A DNA stretch of 39,416 nucleotides. Origin: Candidatus Shapirobacteria bacterium (GTDB lineage Bacteria; Patescibacteriota; Microgenomatia; UBA12405). Location of the stretch: contig JAPLYY010000069.1 of assembly GCA_026395315.1 (NCBI GenBank), positions 1-39,416 on the forward strand. The letters run 5' to 3'. The notes below the pieces were generated by a model, which searched no databases, was not told the origin of the DNA, and saw only the letters and a list, made by a program, of their open reading frames with translations. Shown in pieces: positions 2 to 28,856 of this stretch; within the stretch, counting starts at the first letter, position 1; every line of letters starts with the position of its first letter. A program made the translations under genes and the position numbers.

Positions 2-931
2 GGTTTGGTTGGGGTTGGTACCAGTAACCCCATCGCTAAATTAACTGTCAATGGTGATCTCTCTGTCGGTACTTCGGCTACCATTTCCGGTGTTCTCAAT
101 GTTGGTAATTCCGGCTTCTTCTCTTATGGAGTTGGTATCACTGGCAACTTGATGGTTGGTAGTTCCGGTTTGTTCCAATCCAATGTTGGTATCACTGGTA
201 ACTTGATGGTTGGTAGTTCCGGCTTGTTCCAATCCAATGTTGGTATCACTGGGAACTTGGAAGTTAATGGCAATGCCAACATCGGTACCACCATCACTTC
301 CAACACCGATATTTCCAGTATTTTCCTCGACAAGGAAAACAACAACTATTTCCTCAATCCCGCCGATGCCGGCCCCAATTCCAGTGCCCTCAATTTGTAT
401 GCCACCGCCAGTATCCGCTTCAACACTTATGGTGTTGGCAACACTTTCATCGTCGCCAATGCCGCCGCTTCCCGCCTCCTCAATTTCACCAATGGTCTGC
501 TTCTCGACGTCGGCAACACCGGCAGTGCCAACACCGCCATCACCTGGCCCGGCAACCAACTTTTCCTCAATACCTCCGGCAACGTTGGCATCGGGACAAC
601 CAGTCCAGCTTACAAATTGGATGTAAACGGAGAAATTAGAACAACTTCAAACCTGGTTGAAAAAAAGGTTATTTTTACTCCTTCAACAGTAGGTTGGTAT
701 AGAATCATCTCAAATACAGCCAGTGGACAAATGGGTGGAACAATAAGAATAAGCGCAGCGTACGACAATACCGTCACAGATCCCTGGACCAATCACCATA
801 TATGGTTATGGACCAAATATGCAAAATTTTGTAACCAGCCCCGTTGTCGGAGCCACTGTGGGTGCTACCGATGCCCAGACATTAACCTTGGGTCACGGCT
901 TTCGTACTACAAAAGGAGCAATTTTTGCTGA
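2..931 (+). CDS. Fibre/tail-fibre-like surface repeat protein, 5'-truncated at the window edge. Probably the upstream part of the 819..4649 ORF, with a frame change near 780-800.
   Basis: The frame is open from the window edge. It contains G-x-V-G-I/V-G-T-x-x-P-x-x-K-L-x-V-N-G motifs and an 18-aa tandem repeat. The last ~45 codons look off-frame (Cys/Arg-rich), while frame 3 is open from 753. Confidence 0.6.
   Translation, partial: GLVGVGTSNPIAKLTVNGDLSVGTSATISGVLNVGNSGFFSYGVGITGNLMVGSSGLFQSNVGITGNLMVGSSGLFQSNVGITGNLEVNGNANIGTTITSNTDISSIFLDKENNNYFLNPADAGPNSSALNLYATASIRFNTYGVGNTFIVANAAASRLLNFTNGLLLDVGNTGSANTAITWPGNQLFLNTSGNVGIGTTSPAYKLDVNGEIRTTSNLVEKKVIFTPSTVGWYRIISNTASGQMGGTIRISAAYDNTVTDPWTNHHIWLWTKYAKFCNQPRCRSHCGCYRCPDINLGSRLSYYKRSNFC
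131..262 (+). repeat. 54-nt (18-aa) direct tandem repeat, about 2.4 copies, inside the fibre gene.
   Basis: Copy 131-184 and copy 185-238 differ at 2 positions. A partial third copy runs 239-262. The repeat encodes VGITGNLMVGSSGLFQSN. Confidence 0.9.
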
Positions 932-3900
932 AACATCCGGCAACGTCGGGATTGGGACAACCAACCCAGCTTATAAACTTGTGGTCGCTGGTGATTCATA
1001 TTTATACAATCCAGGTTCAAATACAACTCTACGCGCCGTCAGTGCCGGCAACATCGTTTTTAGCCAAAATTTTAACGATGCCGGTGTTGATTTCTCCAAC
1101 AATGCCGGCGGCGTAATGAGATATACCTTTTCTAACGCCGCTGTCGGCATCGGGACAACAAGTCTAAGCGTAAGATTACAGGTATTAGGCAGTGATGCCA
1201 ACGCTCAACTGGGAGCAGGGGTTAATTCTGCTCTAAGGCTTACAAATACCAATGGAGGAGCTTCTGGTTACTTATCAGAAATCCAATTTGGAACTGCAGA
1301 TGCCACACATATTTTTGCGGCGATTGGAGGAGGTGTAGTTGACACGGGAAATAATACGAGAGGTTTTATTAGTTTTGGAATTCGTCCAACGGCCACAGAC
1401 GCTAATTTAACTGAAGCAATGAGAGTCAATTATAATGGCAATGTCGGCATCGGGACGACCAGCCCTGCCTATAAACTTGACGTTGCCGGCGATGTCAATA
1501 TCTCCGGCACCTTCAGGATCAATGGTACCGCTCTCGCAGCCGGAGGAAATGTCTCCACTACCGGGGGCACGACAGGGTATCTACCGAAGTTCTCTAGTGG
1601 TACGGCCATCGTCAATTCTGCTGTCTTTGAAACTGGCGGTAACGTCGGCATTGGCACGACGGACACATCCCACTCCAATCTTACAGTCATAGGTACTGCC
1701 GGTACTGCTGTTGAAATAGTCCTTGGCAACTCAGACAGTGTTTTTGGCTCAACAGGCTCTGGTTTAGCGCTTTTCTTGGGAACCGCCTCCGGCAACACTT
1801 ATGGAGTAATACAATCCGTTATCAGTGGGGGCACGAATAACGGAAATCTGATTTTACAACCCACTGGTGGCAATGTCGGCATTGGGACGTCGAGCCCAGA
1901 CTATCCTCTGGATATTGTTAGTGCGACGAGCTATCAAGCCCAATTTAAATCAACTGCCGCCAGTAACTTCGCCAGAATAATCCTTAACGGTGCTTCAACC
2001 AAAGGAGCAGATATAATTTTTCAGGAAGCGGGCAATACTCAGTGGGGTATTTATTCGAATGGTACGGCTGCCAGTTCATCATTAGGGTTTTATCCCCAAG
2101 ATGGTGCTACTCCTGCCCTAACGATCTCATCTTCCGGCTGGGTCGGCATTAATGGAGTCGGAGCTGTCAGCCCTCTGACTGTTAATGGCGGCATTTCTGC
2201 CGGAAGTTATTACGGAACAGCCGCACCATCAAACGGAATGATAATCAGTGGCAACGTCGGCATTGGCACCACCAACCCCGACTATCTTCTTGATTTCCAT
2301 GGTGTTGGCAACTTCACTCAGTTAGGTATCGGTGGCACTAATACTTTGTATTTATTAAATGTCGGCGGTACTGCTAAATTTAATAATTTATTAGCCTCTA
2401 ACAATGTTGGCATTGGCACCACGTCGCCGGGTGCACAAATGGATATATCTTCTGCCACCGGTGGAATATTAAGACTAAGTAGCAATGCTGCCAATTTTGA
2501 GGGCACAAACACCGCTGGGGAACTTCAATTTTACACTAGTGACGCAAGCATTAACGCCTCGGGTGTCGCCAGTGCCATCAAATATATTTCCGGCACTACT
2601 TGGAATCAAACAGGTCACGATGGACGTTTAGGATTCTTTCTAACTCCTTCTCTCAATGGTGGAGCCGGAATTGGGTTAACTGAAGTAATGACTATCAGTA
2701 ATAACCGCAACGTCGGCATCGGCACCACCAACCCTCTCTATCCGCTTCATGTCGTGGGCACCGGCTCTAGTGGAGTCGCTTTATTTTCGAATACAACGTC
2801 GGGTAACACCATGCCAGTAGTGGTTATCCAAACCGCCGGGTCGGGTACCACCGGGGCTGCCGATGCCGCCGAGTTTATCCGTTTTCTTAACTCGGCAGGT
2901 AACAAAGCCGGTCGGATCAGAATCGGCCAAACTGCCGCGTCGGTAGTTTATTCAGTATCGGCTACGGCCGATTTTGCCGAATATGTCATTGCCAGCGAAC
3001 CAACTGAAGCCGGCGATTTGATTTCCTTCTCCAATGGTAAATATTCCAAGTCCACTCTTGATAAACCTCTTGCCGGGATTCATTCCTCCGACCCTTCATT
3101 TGTCGGAAATGAAAATATTATGGATCAGCCTAATGCTTTTCCCATGGCCATGTCCGGAGTGGTCAGATTAAAAGTTAGTTCAATTAATGGACCGATAAAT
3201 CCGGGCGACCCCCTAACCGCCAGTTCCATTAACGGCGTTGCCGCCAAGGCCATCACCGCCGGAAATATTGCCGCCCGGGCCGCCGAGTACTACACCAACC
3301 CCGATCCCAATCATGTTGGGATGATCGGCGTTATTCTCAATCTAAGTTGGTATGACCCCGATGTTTTCCTCACCGACACCGGTCAGGTTGGCATCAACTA
3401 CAACGTCTCCTCCGACGTTCTTTCCTCTCTGGGCTACTCCGGTTCTAAAAATGAAATTGAAACCGCTCAATATAATTTAGCCGATTCTTTGGGTAAACCT
3501 GTTTCCCGTCTCGCCCAGTTTGCCCAAGTCGCCGCCGGCAAAATCACCACCGGTCTGCTTTCTGTCGAAAATATCATTGCCAAAAACATCGTTGCCGAAA
3601 GCACTAAATCCAAGAAGATCAGTACTGCCATCATTACTCCTCTTTCCGACCTTAGCAGTACCATCACTGTCGAGGGTAATCTCAACATTGCCAACACCCT
3701 CTCGGCCGTCGACGCCTCTATCTCCGGCACTCTGTATGCCAAAAACATCGTTTCCGACAACATCACCGCTCTTCGCGACCAAATCCGCTCTTTTATTTCT
3801 TCTTCTACTGAACCCAGCTCGGCTGGGCCCTCGGCTATTGCCCAGGCATCCCAAGACTGGACCTACGACATTGGCACCTCTCAAGTCACTGTCACTGGTT

Positions 3901-4649
3901 CCATGAGCCTCTCTGACAGCTTAGTCATCGCTGGTCAACTTAGTGTTCAAGGCACCACCAATCTAAGTCAATTAATTGCCGATGTCGCCAAGTTCAATGC
4001 CATTGAAACCACTTTAGCTCGCGTCGATTCCATCGAGGCGGCCAATACCGCTCTCTACATCCAACCCAGTAAATTAGGATCAGTCCACATCATGGGTGAA
4101 ACCCTGGTTATCACCGATGCCGGTTCAGTCGAAATCAACGGCAACCTGGCTGTTAGTGGCTTGGCTCGACTCAACAACGTTGAGGCGGCTGAAATTAAAT
4201 CTGCCTCCCTCTTTGCCAAATTAATCACTACCGACGAATTAATCACTAAAAAACTTACTACTGATCAGCTAAATGTTGCTACTGACTCCGCCACTATGAT
4301 TATTGCTGACAGCGGCTTTGCCAAGCTGGCTACCAGTTCTGCCCAAATCAACAGCAACGCCGTCGCCGGTACTGCCATCCTGCCTGCCGGTAAAACCGAG
4401 CTGGTCATCAACAATCCCAAAGTCACCGCCGCCTCCATGGTTTACCTCACCCCCAACGGTTCTACCAATAACCAGGTTCTCTACATTAAAGACAAATCTG
4501 TATCTAATGTAGAGACGTTCCGCGGAACGTCTCTACCAAACGACGCCCAAACCGCTACCCCATCGGCTTCTCCCACCCCCAGCTTCACCATTGCTCTCGA
4601 CCAACCCCTCGCCACCGACATTCAGGTTAACTGGTGGATTATAAATTAA
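819..4649 (+). CDS. Giant fibre/adhesin-like surface protein (1276 aa).
   Basis: Long ORF with at least 10 copies of the N-V-G-I-G-T-T-x-P-x-Y-x-L-x-V motif between Gly/Ser/Thr-rich segments. The C-terminal domain of roughly 70-95 aa ends in NWWIIN and is shared with the next gene. The function is inferred from composition only. Confidence 0.8.
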   Translation: MQNFVTSPVVGATVGATDAQTLTLGHGFRTTKGAIFAETSGNVGIGTTNPAYKLVVAGDSYLYNPGSNTTLRAVSAGNIVFSQNFNDAGVDFSNNAGGVMRYTFSNAAVGIGTTSLSVRLQVLGSDANAQLGAGVNSALRLTNTNGGASGYLSEIQFGTADATHIFAAIGGGVVDTGNNTRGFISFGIRPTATDANLTEAMRVNYNGNVGIGTTSPAYKLDVAGDVNISGTFRINGTALAAGGNVSTTGGTTGYLPKFSSGTAIVNSAVFETGGNVGIGTTDTSHSNLTVIGTAGTAVEIVLGNSDSVFGSTGSGLALFLGTASGNTYGVIQSVISGGTNNGNLILQPTGGNVGIGTSSPDYPLDIVSATSYQAQFKSTAASNFARIILNGASTKGADIIFQEAGNTQWGIYSNGTAASSSLGFYPQDGATPALTISSSGWVGINGVGAVSPLTVNGGISAGSYYGTAAPSNGMIISGNVGIGTTNPDYLLDFHGVGNFTQLGIGGTNTLYLLNVGGTAKFNNLLASNNVGIGTTSPGAQMDISSATGGILRLSSNAANFEGTNTAGELQFYTSDASINASGVASAIKYISGTTWNQTGHDGRLGFFLTPSLNGGAGIGLTEVMTISNNRNVGIGTTNPLYPLHVVGTGSSGVALFSNTTSGNTMPVVVIQTAGSGTTGAADAAEFIRFLNSAGNKAGRIRIGQTAASVVYSVSATADFAEYVIASEPTEAGDLISFSNGKYSKSTLDKPLAGIHSSDPSFVGNENIMDQPNAFPMAMSGVVRLKVSSINGPINPGDPLTASSINGVAAKAITAGNIAARAAEYYTNPDPNHVGMIGVILNLSWYDPDVFLTDTGQVGINYNVSSDVLSSLGYSGSKNEIETAQYNLADSLGKPVSRLAQFAQVAAGKITTGLLSVENIIAKNIVAESTKSKKISTAIITPLSDLSSTITVEGNLNIANTLSAVDASISGTLYAKNIVSDNITALRDQIRSFISSSTEPSSAGPSAIAQASQDWTYDIGTSQVTVTGSMSLSDSLVIAGQLSVQGTTNLSQLIADVAKFNAIETTLARVDSIEAANTALYIQPSKLGSVHIMGETLVITDAGSVEINGNLAVSGLARLNNVEAAEIKSASLFAKLITTDELITKKLTTDQLNVATDSATMIIADSGFAKLATSSAQINSNAVAGTAILPAGKTELVINNPKVTAASMVYLTPNGSTNNQVLYIKDKSVSNVETFRGTSLPNDAQTATPSASPTPSFTIALDQPLATDIQVNWWIIN
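4509..4536. repeat. 28-bp perfect palindrome inside the fibre CDS (family C-like).
   Basis: The sequence gtagagacgttccg|cggaacgtctctac is flanked by TGTA...TACCA. It encodes VETFRGTSL within a segment that is missing from the paralogous domain of the next gene. Confidence 0.85.
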
Positions 4650-4685
4650 ACCCTAACCCTACCCTTTCCCTTGACAGGGCAAGGG
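4648..4685 (-). repeat. Family A element, G-tract-tail subtype, reverse orientation.
   Basis: Sequence aaaccctaaccctaccctttcccttgacagggcaaggg. It starts inside the TAA stop codon of 819..4649. Confidence 0.85.
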
Positions 4686-4690
4686 TTTTA

Positions 4691-4733
4691 GGCTCCCCTG
4701 TCAAGTGGAGCTGGCCGAAGGACTGAGGGGTTT
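4691..4733 (+). repeat. Family A element, variable-hairpin subtype, slightly degenerate.
   Basis: Sequence ggctcccctgtcaagtggagctggccgaaggactgaggggttt. It has two stem mismatches relative to the copies at 12620 and 23666. Confidence 0.85.
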
Positions 4734-4764
4734 GTTCTATTATTAATTTACTTTATACTTATCT

Positions 4765-6021
4765 ATGGATCTCACTCCCGATCAGCTTAAACAACTAAAA
4801 GACCTCGGTTTAGATATATCTAATCCCCTATCTTCTATATCTAAAGATATCAGAAACGATCAGCCTTTACCCCCAACTTTAGGTCAAATTCCCGTTGGTC
4901 CGGTTGTTAGCACTCGTCACTTCTCTCTGCTACCTCTACTCTCCATTTCTGGACTTTCTCTCGTTTCTTTTGGCGGCCTGCTCCTCTTTAAATCTAAAGC
5001 CGAAACCCCGTCCGGGCAGATCCCCGTATCTGCCCCCTCTCCCAATCCCCAACAATCTCAAATTGAACCAACTCAGGTTCCCAAATCCATTCAGCACTAC
5101 CTTCTTGCTTCCCAGCAATATTTTAGCAGCGCTTTAGCTGCTCAAAATTGTACGGGCGGACCGACGTGTCCGCCCTCCAACCTCCCCGATCTACTTAACC
5201 AATCCATTCTCACCGCTACCGACGCCATCAAAGACTTCCCCACCGATTTCCGCGGCTACCAGCAACGCGGCTCCATCTATTTATCTTTAATTGACTCGCA
5301 ACCCCAGTTCTTAGATAGCGCCATCGCCGACTTTTCCCGGGCTTCCGAGCTTAATCCTGCCAGCGCCGATATCAGCCGTTCCCTGGCCACTCTCTTTGCC
5401 AAAAAAGGCGATGTTCCCAATACCCTTGCCTACCTTAGCCGCACCGTCGCTATTGAACCTACCAAAGCCCAGAATTTTTATGATTTGGCCAAACTCCAAC
5501 AACAAGCGGGCTTAATTCCCCAAGCTCTTGACACCTACTCAACTCTCCTACCCCTTATCAGTGATCCCGTTCAAAAACAACAGGTCCAAACCGAACTTTC
5601 CTCTCTTGAAAAATTGGCCTCCCAGAATACATCAAACAGTGCTTTACCTTCTCCTTTTACCTCGCCAAAGCCTACTGGCGACGGCGGGTCTATATCACTC
5701 CCCGACCACCCCAATCTAATCCAAGCCAATACCAACCAAGGTCTGATTATCGCCGCCCCGGCCACTTCCCCAGACATTTCTGTCACCAATCTTTCCGCTT
5801 CCAATTCTCTCTCCGGCACCGGTATTCTCCCCGCCAACACTGCTTCTGTTTCTTTTTCCAATTCCCATCTTTCTTCTGCTTCCCAGGTTTACCTCACTAT
5901 CATCAAAGGCGGTACCAACCAGTCACTCCAAGTCCTCAGCCGTTCCACCGACTCCTTCACCGTTGGCCTCGACTCACCCATTTCTGAACCCATCGAGTTC
6001 AAGTGGTGGATTGTGAATTAA
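4765..6021 (+). CDS. Membrane-anchored TPR-repeat protein with a C-terminal domain ending KWWIVN.
   Basis: 418-aa ORF with one hydrophobic helix (LLPLLSISGLSLVSFGGLLLF) and TPR-like helical repeats (RGSIYLSL...ALDTYSTLL). The C-terminal domain aligns with that of the preceding gene. Confidence 0.75.
   Translation: MDLTPDQLKQLKDLGLDISNPLSSISKDIRNDQPLPPTLGQIPVGPVVSTRHFSLLPLLSISGLSLVSFGGLLLFKSKAETPSGQIPVSAPSPNPQQSQIEPTQVPKSIQHYLLASQQYFSSALAAQNCTGGPTCPPSNLPDLLNQSILTATDAIKDFPTDFRGYQQRGSIYLSLIDSQPQFLDSAIADFSRASELNPASADISRSLATLFAKKGDVPNTLAYLSRTVAIEPTKAQNFYDLAKLQQQAGLIPQALDTYSTLLPLISDPVQKQQVQTELSSLEKLASQNTSNSALPSPFTSPKPTGDGGSISLPDHPNLIQANTNQGLIIAAPATSPDISVTNLSASNSLSGTGILPANTASVSFSNSHLSSASQVYLTIIKGGTNQSLQVLSRSTDSFTVGLDSPISEPIEFKWWIVN
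5149..5180 (+). repeat. Family C palindromic element inside a CDS.
   Basis: Sequence tgtacGGGCGGACcgacgtGTCCGCCCtccaa. It encodes CTGGPTCPPS in 4765..6021. Confidence 0.8.
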
Positions 6022-28825: not shown

Positions 28826-28856
28826 GGGGCGGACCGATGTGTCCGCCCTTTTCGTT
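28826..28856 (+). terminator. Family C hairpin acting as a possible intrinsic terminator or attenuator inside the pilin operon.
   Basis: Sequence gGGGCGGACcgatgtGTCCGCCCttttcgtt. Confidence 0.5.

Follow-up and report, generated by a model that had tools for sequence, protein, structure and literature searches.

A palindrome within a surface-protein gene of a Candidatus Shapirobacteria bacterium is probably a double-foot REP of a RAYT-associated class

The DNA analyzed here (the window; 39,416 nucleotides of the forward strand) is contig JAPLYY010000069.1 (C37) of the Candidatus Shapirobacteria assembly GCA_026395315.1, an 843-kb genome of the Candidate Phyla Radiation (CPR) type in 127 contigs with 39% G+C and 87% completeness. 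Near the 3' end of a gene for a tail-fibre-like surface protein, the window contains the 28-bp sequence GTAGAGACGTTCCGCGGAACGTCTCTAC, and a first-pass annotation proposed that a palindromic element had inserted into this coding region and is tolerated there. This locus raises the question of what the palindrome is, how much of the coding sequence around it derives from the element, and how such an element comes to lie inside a gene. We consider it likely that the palindrome is a GTAG-footed, double-foot repetitive extragenic palindromic (REP) element of the class associated with subclass 2.4 of the TnpA-REP/RAYT (REP-associated tyrosine transposase) HUH-Y1 enzymes, and that it is translated as a tolerated loop.

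The palindrome, its copies, and a transposase gene bracketed by them

The features of the window on which the analysis turns are as follows.

819–4649, + strand: host gene for a tail-fibre-like surface protein of 1276 aa with GNVGIGTT repeats and a C-terminal "...NWWIIN" domain (open reading frame translation).
4509–4536, no strand assigned: GTAG...CTAC palindrome, putative double-foot REP with the centre variant TTCCGCGGAA (sequence, shuffles, genome copies, and fold).
4509–4538, + strand: putatively REP-derived part of the extra block, ten codons, VETFRGTSLP (translation).
4539–4583, + strand: Pro/Thr/Ser-rich linker NDAQTATPSASPTPS, not palindrome-derived, the hypervariable linker of the domain family (homologue comparison).
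4765–6021, + strand: neighbouring gene for a TPR protein, the last ca. 75 aa of which form the paralogous C-terminal domain with the minimal linker SRSTDS (BLASTP).

The sequence at 4509–4536 equals its own reverse complement and is a perfect 28-bp palindrome, as the first-pass annotation had stated. It was found once in the window and not at all in 100 dinucleotide-preserving shuffles. It lies in frame in the open reading frame (ORF) at 819–4649, where it is read as VETFRGTSL and supplies the first base of the following P codon. The single-stranded DNA of the 28-mer forms a hairpin with a stem of 12 bp and a loop of 4 nt, at −11.8 kcal/mol (z = −4.4 relative to shuffled sequences). Its two arms of 14 nt each are perfectly complementary, and its length is within the 20–40 bp of stable hairpin expected of a REP.

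A search of the genome for further copies, which the first-pass annotation had recommended, yielded five exact copies of the 28-mer, including that of the window, and ca. 21 copies of a family of the form GTAGAGACG-N10-CGTCTCTAC on 16 contigs (20 complete copies and one cut by a contig end). This pattern gave no match in shuffled genomes. Palindromes of the form GT[AG]G...C[TC]AC with at most one mismatched pair numbered 16 in the genome and 0 in three shuffled genomes. Nineteen of the 20 complete copies, among them the window copy, have the ends GTAG...CTAC, and the copy at C56:6131 ends in CTGC. The centre variants (TTCCGCGGAA, TTCTGCAGAA, TCATTAATGA, TGATTAATCA, and CATCATGATG) are each palindromic; therefore, the centres vary by symmetric pairs.

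Three copies of the family lie at a transposase gene on contig C95.

C95:335–928: RAYT-type tyrosine transposase gene, 197 aa (Pfam Y1_Tnp, NCBIfam REP_Tyr_transpos).
C95:307–334: palindrome abutting the ORF.
C95:931–958: palindrome abutting the ORF.
C95:660–687: palindrome in frame inside the ORF, encoding CRDVLQNVST between the HuH (PNHVHIL) and Tyr (KYIQNN) motifs.

The C95 ORF matched Pfam Y1_Tnp with 27.7 bits (gathering cut-off, 23). This layout is a REPtron, that is, a RAYT gene bracketed by its own REP, and the palindromic element proposed in the first-pass annotation thus has a cognate RAYT gene flanked by its copies. The genome has four Y1_Tnp (RAYT-like) genes, on C45, C74, C82, and C95; at least three of them have adjoining hairpins, and the hairpin type is different for each.

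Double-foot REPs and REPs inside tnpA-REP genes were described by Quentin, Siguier, Chandler & Fichant in 2018 (PMC6006769). Subclass 2.4 of TnpA-REP (RAYT group 4) was characterized there by the HuH motif NH[IFV]H, the W motif WQ, the Y motif YIxNNP, and a median length of 194 aa; its REPs were listed as "long, double foot, inserted in tnpA-REP" (Table 1), and it was reported as abundant among Cyanobacteria and Bacteroidetes, with scattered occurrences in other groups (PMC6006769). We placed the C95 gene by motifs, length, layout, and profile scores. Its HuH motif (PNHVHIL) and W motif (GWQPRF) match the NH[IFV]H and WQ signature, and the gene fits the published description throughout, except for the final P of the Y motif. 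The likeness comprises the NHVH, WQ, and YIxNN motifs in a protein of ca. 195 aa, and, for the element, the 5' GT[AG]G foot, the complementary C[TC]AC foot, and the long stem (PMC6006769). It also includes the occurrence of the 9-nt arms in Cyanobacteria and Bacteroidota, where the subclass is abundant. On the other hand, the host here is a CPR bacterium with a genome below 1 Mb, and half of the copies are intragenic, which in subclass 2.4 is true of a small minority.

We surveyed 40 relatives and found exact-arm copies in 9 of the 24 genomes of the same family and in 0 of the 16 genomes of other families of the order. Identical arms are present in at least 120 stretches from Bacteroidota, Cyanobacteria, Chloroflexi, Acidobacteria, and other phyla, a range that matches the one reported for subclass 2.4. 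In 80 of these loci, which hold 87 copies, ca. 15 copies lie inside long ORFs by a crude criterion, and three of those ORFs have a HuH motif. The exact 28-mer of the window was also present in one metagenome (JAEEGL...), on four contigs (L250–L253) without similarity to this genome, which gave no empty site for the window copy. One of the copies is read in frame within an ORF of 649 aa rich in His, Glu, and Asp.

Two other identities were rejected. A restriction-related element (SacII, PstI, or BsmBI sites in the palindrome) was dropped because the centres vary freely, and the arms and the RAYT linkage are constant. Miniature inverted-repeat transposable elements (MITEs) have terminal inverted repeats around a non-palindromic core, a length of 70–300 bp, and a target-site duplication. 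Here the whole element is the 28-bp palindrome, and the flanks of ca. 20 copies contain neither a duplication nor a consensus.

The system also resembles the REPs and bacterial interspersed mosaic elements of Escherichia coli with their TnpA-REP (RayT/YafM; PDB 4ER8) in having a GTAG foot with a hairpin and a REP-bracketed HUH-Y1 gene. The REPs of E. coli are imperfect, single-footed, and extragenic, and number hundreds of copies.

The extra block of the surface protein and copies inside other genes

To determine what the element contributes to the surface protein, we compared the last 120 aa of the ORF at 819–4649 with the last 99 aa of the ORF at 4765–6021 by BLASTP (E = 5e-15, 32% identity). 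The alignment has a single gap, which covers ...SVSNVETFRGTSLPNDAQTATPSASP... and the palindrome. The segment that the first-pass annotation had described as absent from the neighbouring domain is thus real, though it comprises 25 residues instead of 26. It consists of the ten REP-encoded residues VETFRGTSLP and ca. 15 residues of the linker NDAQTATPSASPTPS. Among ca. 30 homologues in the bacterial family to which this genome belongs, the linker between "K.K" and "[FY]T[IV][AG][LI]D" ranges from 4 to ca. 30 residues and is mostly Pro/Thr/Ser-rich (e.g., FISPTPTPEGSSTDSQSY), the sequences being mutually unrelated. Most of these domains have a Pro/Thr-rich linker without any palindrome, and the neighbour differs simply in having a linker of minimal length. 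The variation in length indicates that the linker tolerates insertions.

The paralogue comparison therefore overstates the insert, because the element encodes only ca. 10 of the 25 additional residues. Accordingly, the view of the extra block as a palindromic insertion stands for the ten residues and not for the other ca. 15, which belong to the variable linker of most homologues. The first-pass annotation had named, as grounds for abandoning its proposal, the general presence of the block in homologous domains without a palindrome; this we found to hold in part for the block as a whole and not for the palindrome. Comparison with homologues that lack the insertion, also recommended there, identified L072 as the closest homologue of the domain: it is 77% identical, forms the sister branch with 100/100 support, and has a linker without a REP. 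Finally, the annotation considered its evidence to be internal to the window. Its conclusion is supported, most strongly by evidence from other parts of the genome and from homologues. The element is also not peculiar to this locus.

Half of the complete copies (10 of 20) are in frame inside ORFs and hence not in the extragenic location that characterizes GTAG REPs. That the palindromic element sits in a coding region and is tolerated there is thus corroborated by the ten in-frame copies in identified genes. Pfam names eight of the hosts: NAD-dependent DNA ligase (LigA), AlaRS, PEP synthase/PPDK, LeuRS, PheS, PheT, MiaA, and Dus. The remaining two are the RAYT gene on C95 and the surface protein of the window. 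The peptide encoded by the window REP recurs in AlaRS (IETFRGTSLP) and Dus (VETFRGTSLQ). Two stop-free frames are used, VET...SL and xRDV...VST, and the third frame reads TAG.

The in-frame copies are located in interdomain linkers or variable loops. In PEP synthase, the order of Pfam domains is PEP-utilizers (372–442), REP (457–466), and PEP-utilizers_C (467–); another host has Phe_tRNA-synt_N (27–80), REP (83–92), and the core (103–); and LigA has HHH_5 (to 562), REP (580–589), and BRCT (588–). The REPs of LigA and PEP synthase lie within linkers that solved homologues also have. In Dus, 30 residues containing the REP have no counterpart in the Thermotoga structure PDB 1VHN. The same Dus loop holds different repeat-derived inserts in several genera (orthologues L206–L224): SLPFLKGRCPEGTGRF in genome G010, PSLSKRGQGE in G001, and a block of ca. 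40 aa in G004. The loop is an insertion hot spot shared by repeats of more than one family.

Intragenic copies of this kind have precedents. Di Nocera, De Gregorio & Rocco (2013) defined the GTAG REPs, found intragenic copies in ligase, tRNA synthetase, and repair genes, and argued that intragenic REPs are neutral and lie in flexible linkers or loops (PMC3733652). As in our case, the intragenic GTAG/CGTC REPs are in frame in DNA ligase and tRNA synthetases and give short peptide inserts. However, they are mostly dimers or groups encoding 20–30 aa and a minority of a large extragenic family (PMC3733652), whereas the copies described here are single 28-bp units of 10 aa each, and ca. 50% of the family is intragenic.

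Rickettsia palindromic elements (RPEs; Ogata et al. 2000) are described, as cited in PMC3733652, as in-frame palindromic repeats in a reduced genome, and Di Nocera et al. classed RPE-4 and RPE-6 as CGTC-type REPs (PMC3733652). Our copies resemble RPEs as palindromes in frame in genes of a reduced genome that are tolerated in proteins. RPE-1 is roughly 100–150 bp long and has no GTAG foot, and we know of no transposase associated with it. An RPE-1-type element was rejected as the identity of the palindrome: the in-frame location is common to both, but the 28-bp size and the GTAG foot differ, and there is no sequence relation.

Occupation of the same loops in other genomes and rival readings

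We examined whether the loops that carry a REP in this genome are occupied in other genomes. The surface-protein linker contains a REP in 5 of ca. 32 homologous domains. The copies in other loci are as follows.

L015/L061, at the nucleotide offset of the window copy: REP GTAGAGACGCGCGATCGTGCGTCTCTAC.
L016, at the nucleotide offset of the window copy: REP GTAGGGACAGGTCGCGACCTGTCCCTAC.
L053, 6 nt upstream of the offset of the window copy: REP GTAGAGACGCCAGATCTGGCGTCTCTAT.
L066, at an offset other than that of the window copy: single-foot REP.

A maximum-likelihood tree did not group the five REP-bearing domains together, and at least three gains or losses are needed to reconcile their distribution with its well-supported branches. 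A single ancestral insertion in this linker was therefore rejected.

The LeuRS loop, among ca. 19 genomes with a readable alignment, contains a REP in G000, G007, and G012 alone. The REPs of G000 (TTCCGCGGAA centre) and G007 (TAGCGCGCTA) are at the identical nucleotide position and differ by two symmetric base-pair swaps. Between these two LeuRS genes, 49 of 163 four-fold degenerate sites are identical, against 18 of 18 REP arm bases. The arms are thus identical where synonymous sites are saturated, and therefore they must be either constrained or recent at the DNA level, not at the protein level. In G012, a REP dimer lies 2 nt away from this position. This locus (L020) reads GTAG-GGGCGCATCATGATGCGCCC-AGGGCGATTCGTGAATCGCCC-CTAC, with two different hairpins within one foot pair, in frame; the composite resembles a transitional form between REP dimers and double-foot REPs. 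In the LigA of G016, the same HhH-BRCT linker holds another REP variant, and PheS of G012 has the REP-like peptide HVGAIHESPK at approximately the same position in the linker between the N-domain and the core, as read from the peptide. The centre variant CATCATGATG was found in PEP synthase in this genome and in UvrA in G007. In most genera, the orthologues of the in-frame REP host genes have no REP.

These observations fit the following course of events. By analogy with the biochemistry of the E. coli TnpA-REP, the C95 RAYT would recognize the hairpin of the element in single-stranded DNA, cut beside the GTAG foot, and move or copy the element. Most insertions into genes would be lethal and lost, and the surviving copies would be those in tolerant loops, with an open frame and a net length divisible by three. 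The window copy would then have lengthened the Pro/Thr linker of the C-terminal domain, which was hypervariable already, by the ten-residue loop VETFRGTSLP. Repeated insertion filtered for tolerant loops and exchange or homogenization in place both fit the data; we give more weight to the former because of the tree and the differing offsets.

In the case of exchange, the RAYT would cut at the GTAG/CTAC feet and swap the resident hairpin for another family member in place, which we regard as a possible but doubtful process. If true, it would explain the different REP variants at the same position in orthologous loops across genera, the 18 identical arm bases despite saturated synonymous sites, and the centres that differ by symmetric pairs alone and are palindromic through the middle.

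A related and rather unlikely explanation is that the copies are immobile: old insertions, vertically inherited, and homogenized among themselves by gene conversion or by hairpin replacement through the RAYT. The G000 and G007 LeuRS REPs with their identical position and arms, the different variant in the same LigA linker of G016, and the different REPs at the same nucleotide offset in three surface-protein genes would all be expected of such relics. However, repeated independent insertions filtered for tolerant loops explain the common loops equally well. Furthermore, the REP-bearing surface-protein domains are not monophyletic, and the sister of the window copy has no REP; the REPs of L053 and L066 are at other offsets of the same linker; and the same variant occurs in different genes of different genomes.

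It is considerably less probable that the palindrome is a functional site selected by the host, either for a dimeric DNA-binding protein or as a hairpin in the mRNA that causes ribosomal pausing or defines the ends of transcripts, and is adaptive in the genes. The centre is perfectly palindromic in 64 of the 87 copies from the 80 loci sampled across phyla, and a simple hairpin loop needs no such palindromy. In addition, intergenic copies are often found immediately before or after an ORF, and the arms are kept at the DNA level despite saturated synonymous sites. In contrast, the use of two different frames in unrelated proteins leaves no role at the protein level. The host genes are unrelated and form no common regulon, their orthologues mostly lack the element, and an Rfam search gave no meaningful match. 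The element also brackets and interrupts a transposase gene, as in REPtrons.

A chance origin of the palindrome in an ordinary variable linker would suit the hypervariability of the linker in the domain family; this reading and that of an assembly artefact are refuted by the zero matches in shuffles, by the five exact and ca. 21 family copies on different contigs, and by the same elements in independent NCBI and JGI assemblies.

Several points weigh against the assignment to a RAYT-associated double-foot REP. The C95 ORF scored 48.6 bits (E 7.6e-13) against NCBIfam NF047646 (REP-associated tyrosine transposase), compared with an equivalog cut-off of 80. Its similarity to the E. coli TnpA-REP structure 4ER8 was marginal (E 0.45), in an alignment that includes the HuH and WQPRF...YI..N regions. 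Unlike that of subclass 2.4, its Y motif, KYIQNNI, has the Tyr and NN but ends in I instead of P. Classical REP families have more than 100 copies, and ca. 21 is a low number for a REP family, also in comparison with subclass 2.4. The flanks of ca. 20 copies showed no target-site duplication or target consensus, just A/T richness. A metagenome scan using the window flanks with a gap of 0–30 nt gave no empty or filled site, and the linker DNA could not be aligned with that of L072, as the whole linker differs, and thus gave no clean empty site or borders. The mobility of the family is inferred. The window copy is most likely a neutral passenger, and its translation is assumed.

Neighbouring genes, further repeats, and implications

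A weak Peptidase_G2 match was the only one for the host protein. Its C-terminal domain has 748 cluster representatives at E <= 1e-3 and ends proteins whose ORFs reach 9933 aa. The gene pair is syntenic in L016 (1195–3964, corresponding to 819–6021 of the window), where a tail-fibre-like gene is followed by a gene for a TPR protein ending in a WWI[IV]N domain. An open-ended ORF at 2–931 of the window has the same GNVGIGTTSPAYKLDV repeats and extends, in a different frame, into the beginning of the ORF of 1276 aa. The ORFs at 2–931 and 819–4649 may represent a single longer gene interrupted by a frameshift, or separate genes.

A second REP family has a single foot, GTAG/GTAC, followed by GGG[CT][CG]GAC-N6-GTC[CG][GA]CCC. 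Its copies are as follows.

Window 5150–5175, + strand: single-foot REP, GTAC + GGGCGGACCGACGTGTCCGCCC, in frame in the neighbouring TPR gene (NCTGGPTCPPS).
Window 28827–28848: copy between short ORFs.
C45:1152–1550: four copies in and beside the RAYT-like gene at C45:1213–1752.

At the position orthologous to 5150–5175, the TPR gene of L016 encodes a different REP-like peptide, VGANHDSPS. The spacer immediately after the host gene (4650–4720) contains GC-rich copies of a cccttgacagggcaagggtttt-like repeat. A cccttgacagggcaagggtttt-like repeat is apparently translated in LigA (LLVKGGDKGGF) and PheT (SPPCQGRGRGRV, LLKGDQGGF) of the same genome.

Published work already covers GTAG REPs within genes as well as REPs within RAYT genes, and our findings leave what is known of REPs unchanged. 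The literature we searched contained no paper connecting RAYT or REP with Patescibacteria; relative to it, the CPR host group and the intragenic frequency of ca. 50% are new. If the palindrome is a RAYT-associated REP, REP/RAYT systems are at work in ultra-small CPR genomes, and there they come to lie largely within genes, some of them essential. Surface proteins and the products of essential genes would thereby carry added loops of 10 residues. For annotation, VETFRGTSLP or xRDVPRNVST in CPR proteins would mark REP insertions and not conserved motifs. The copies would also provide natural "insertion-tolerance maps" for LeuRS, LigA, PheS, and Dus.

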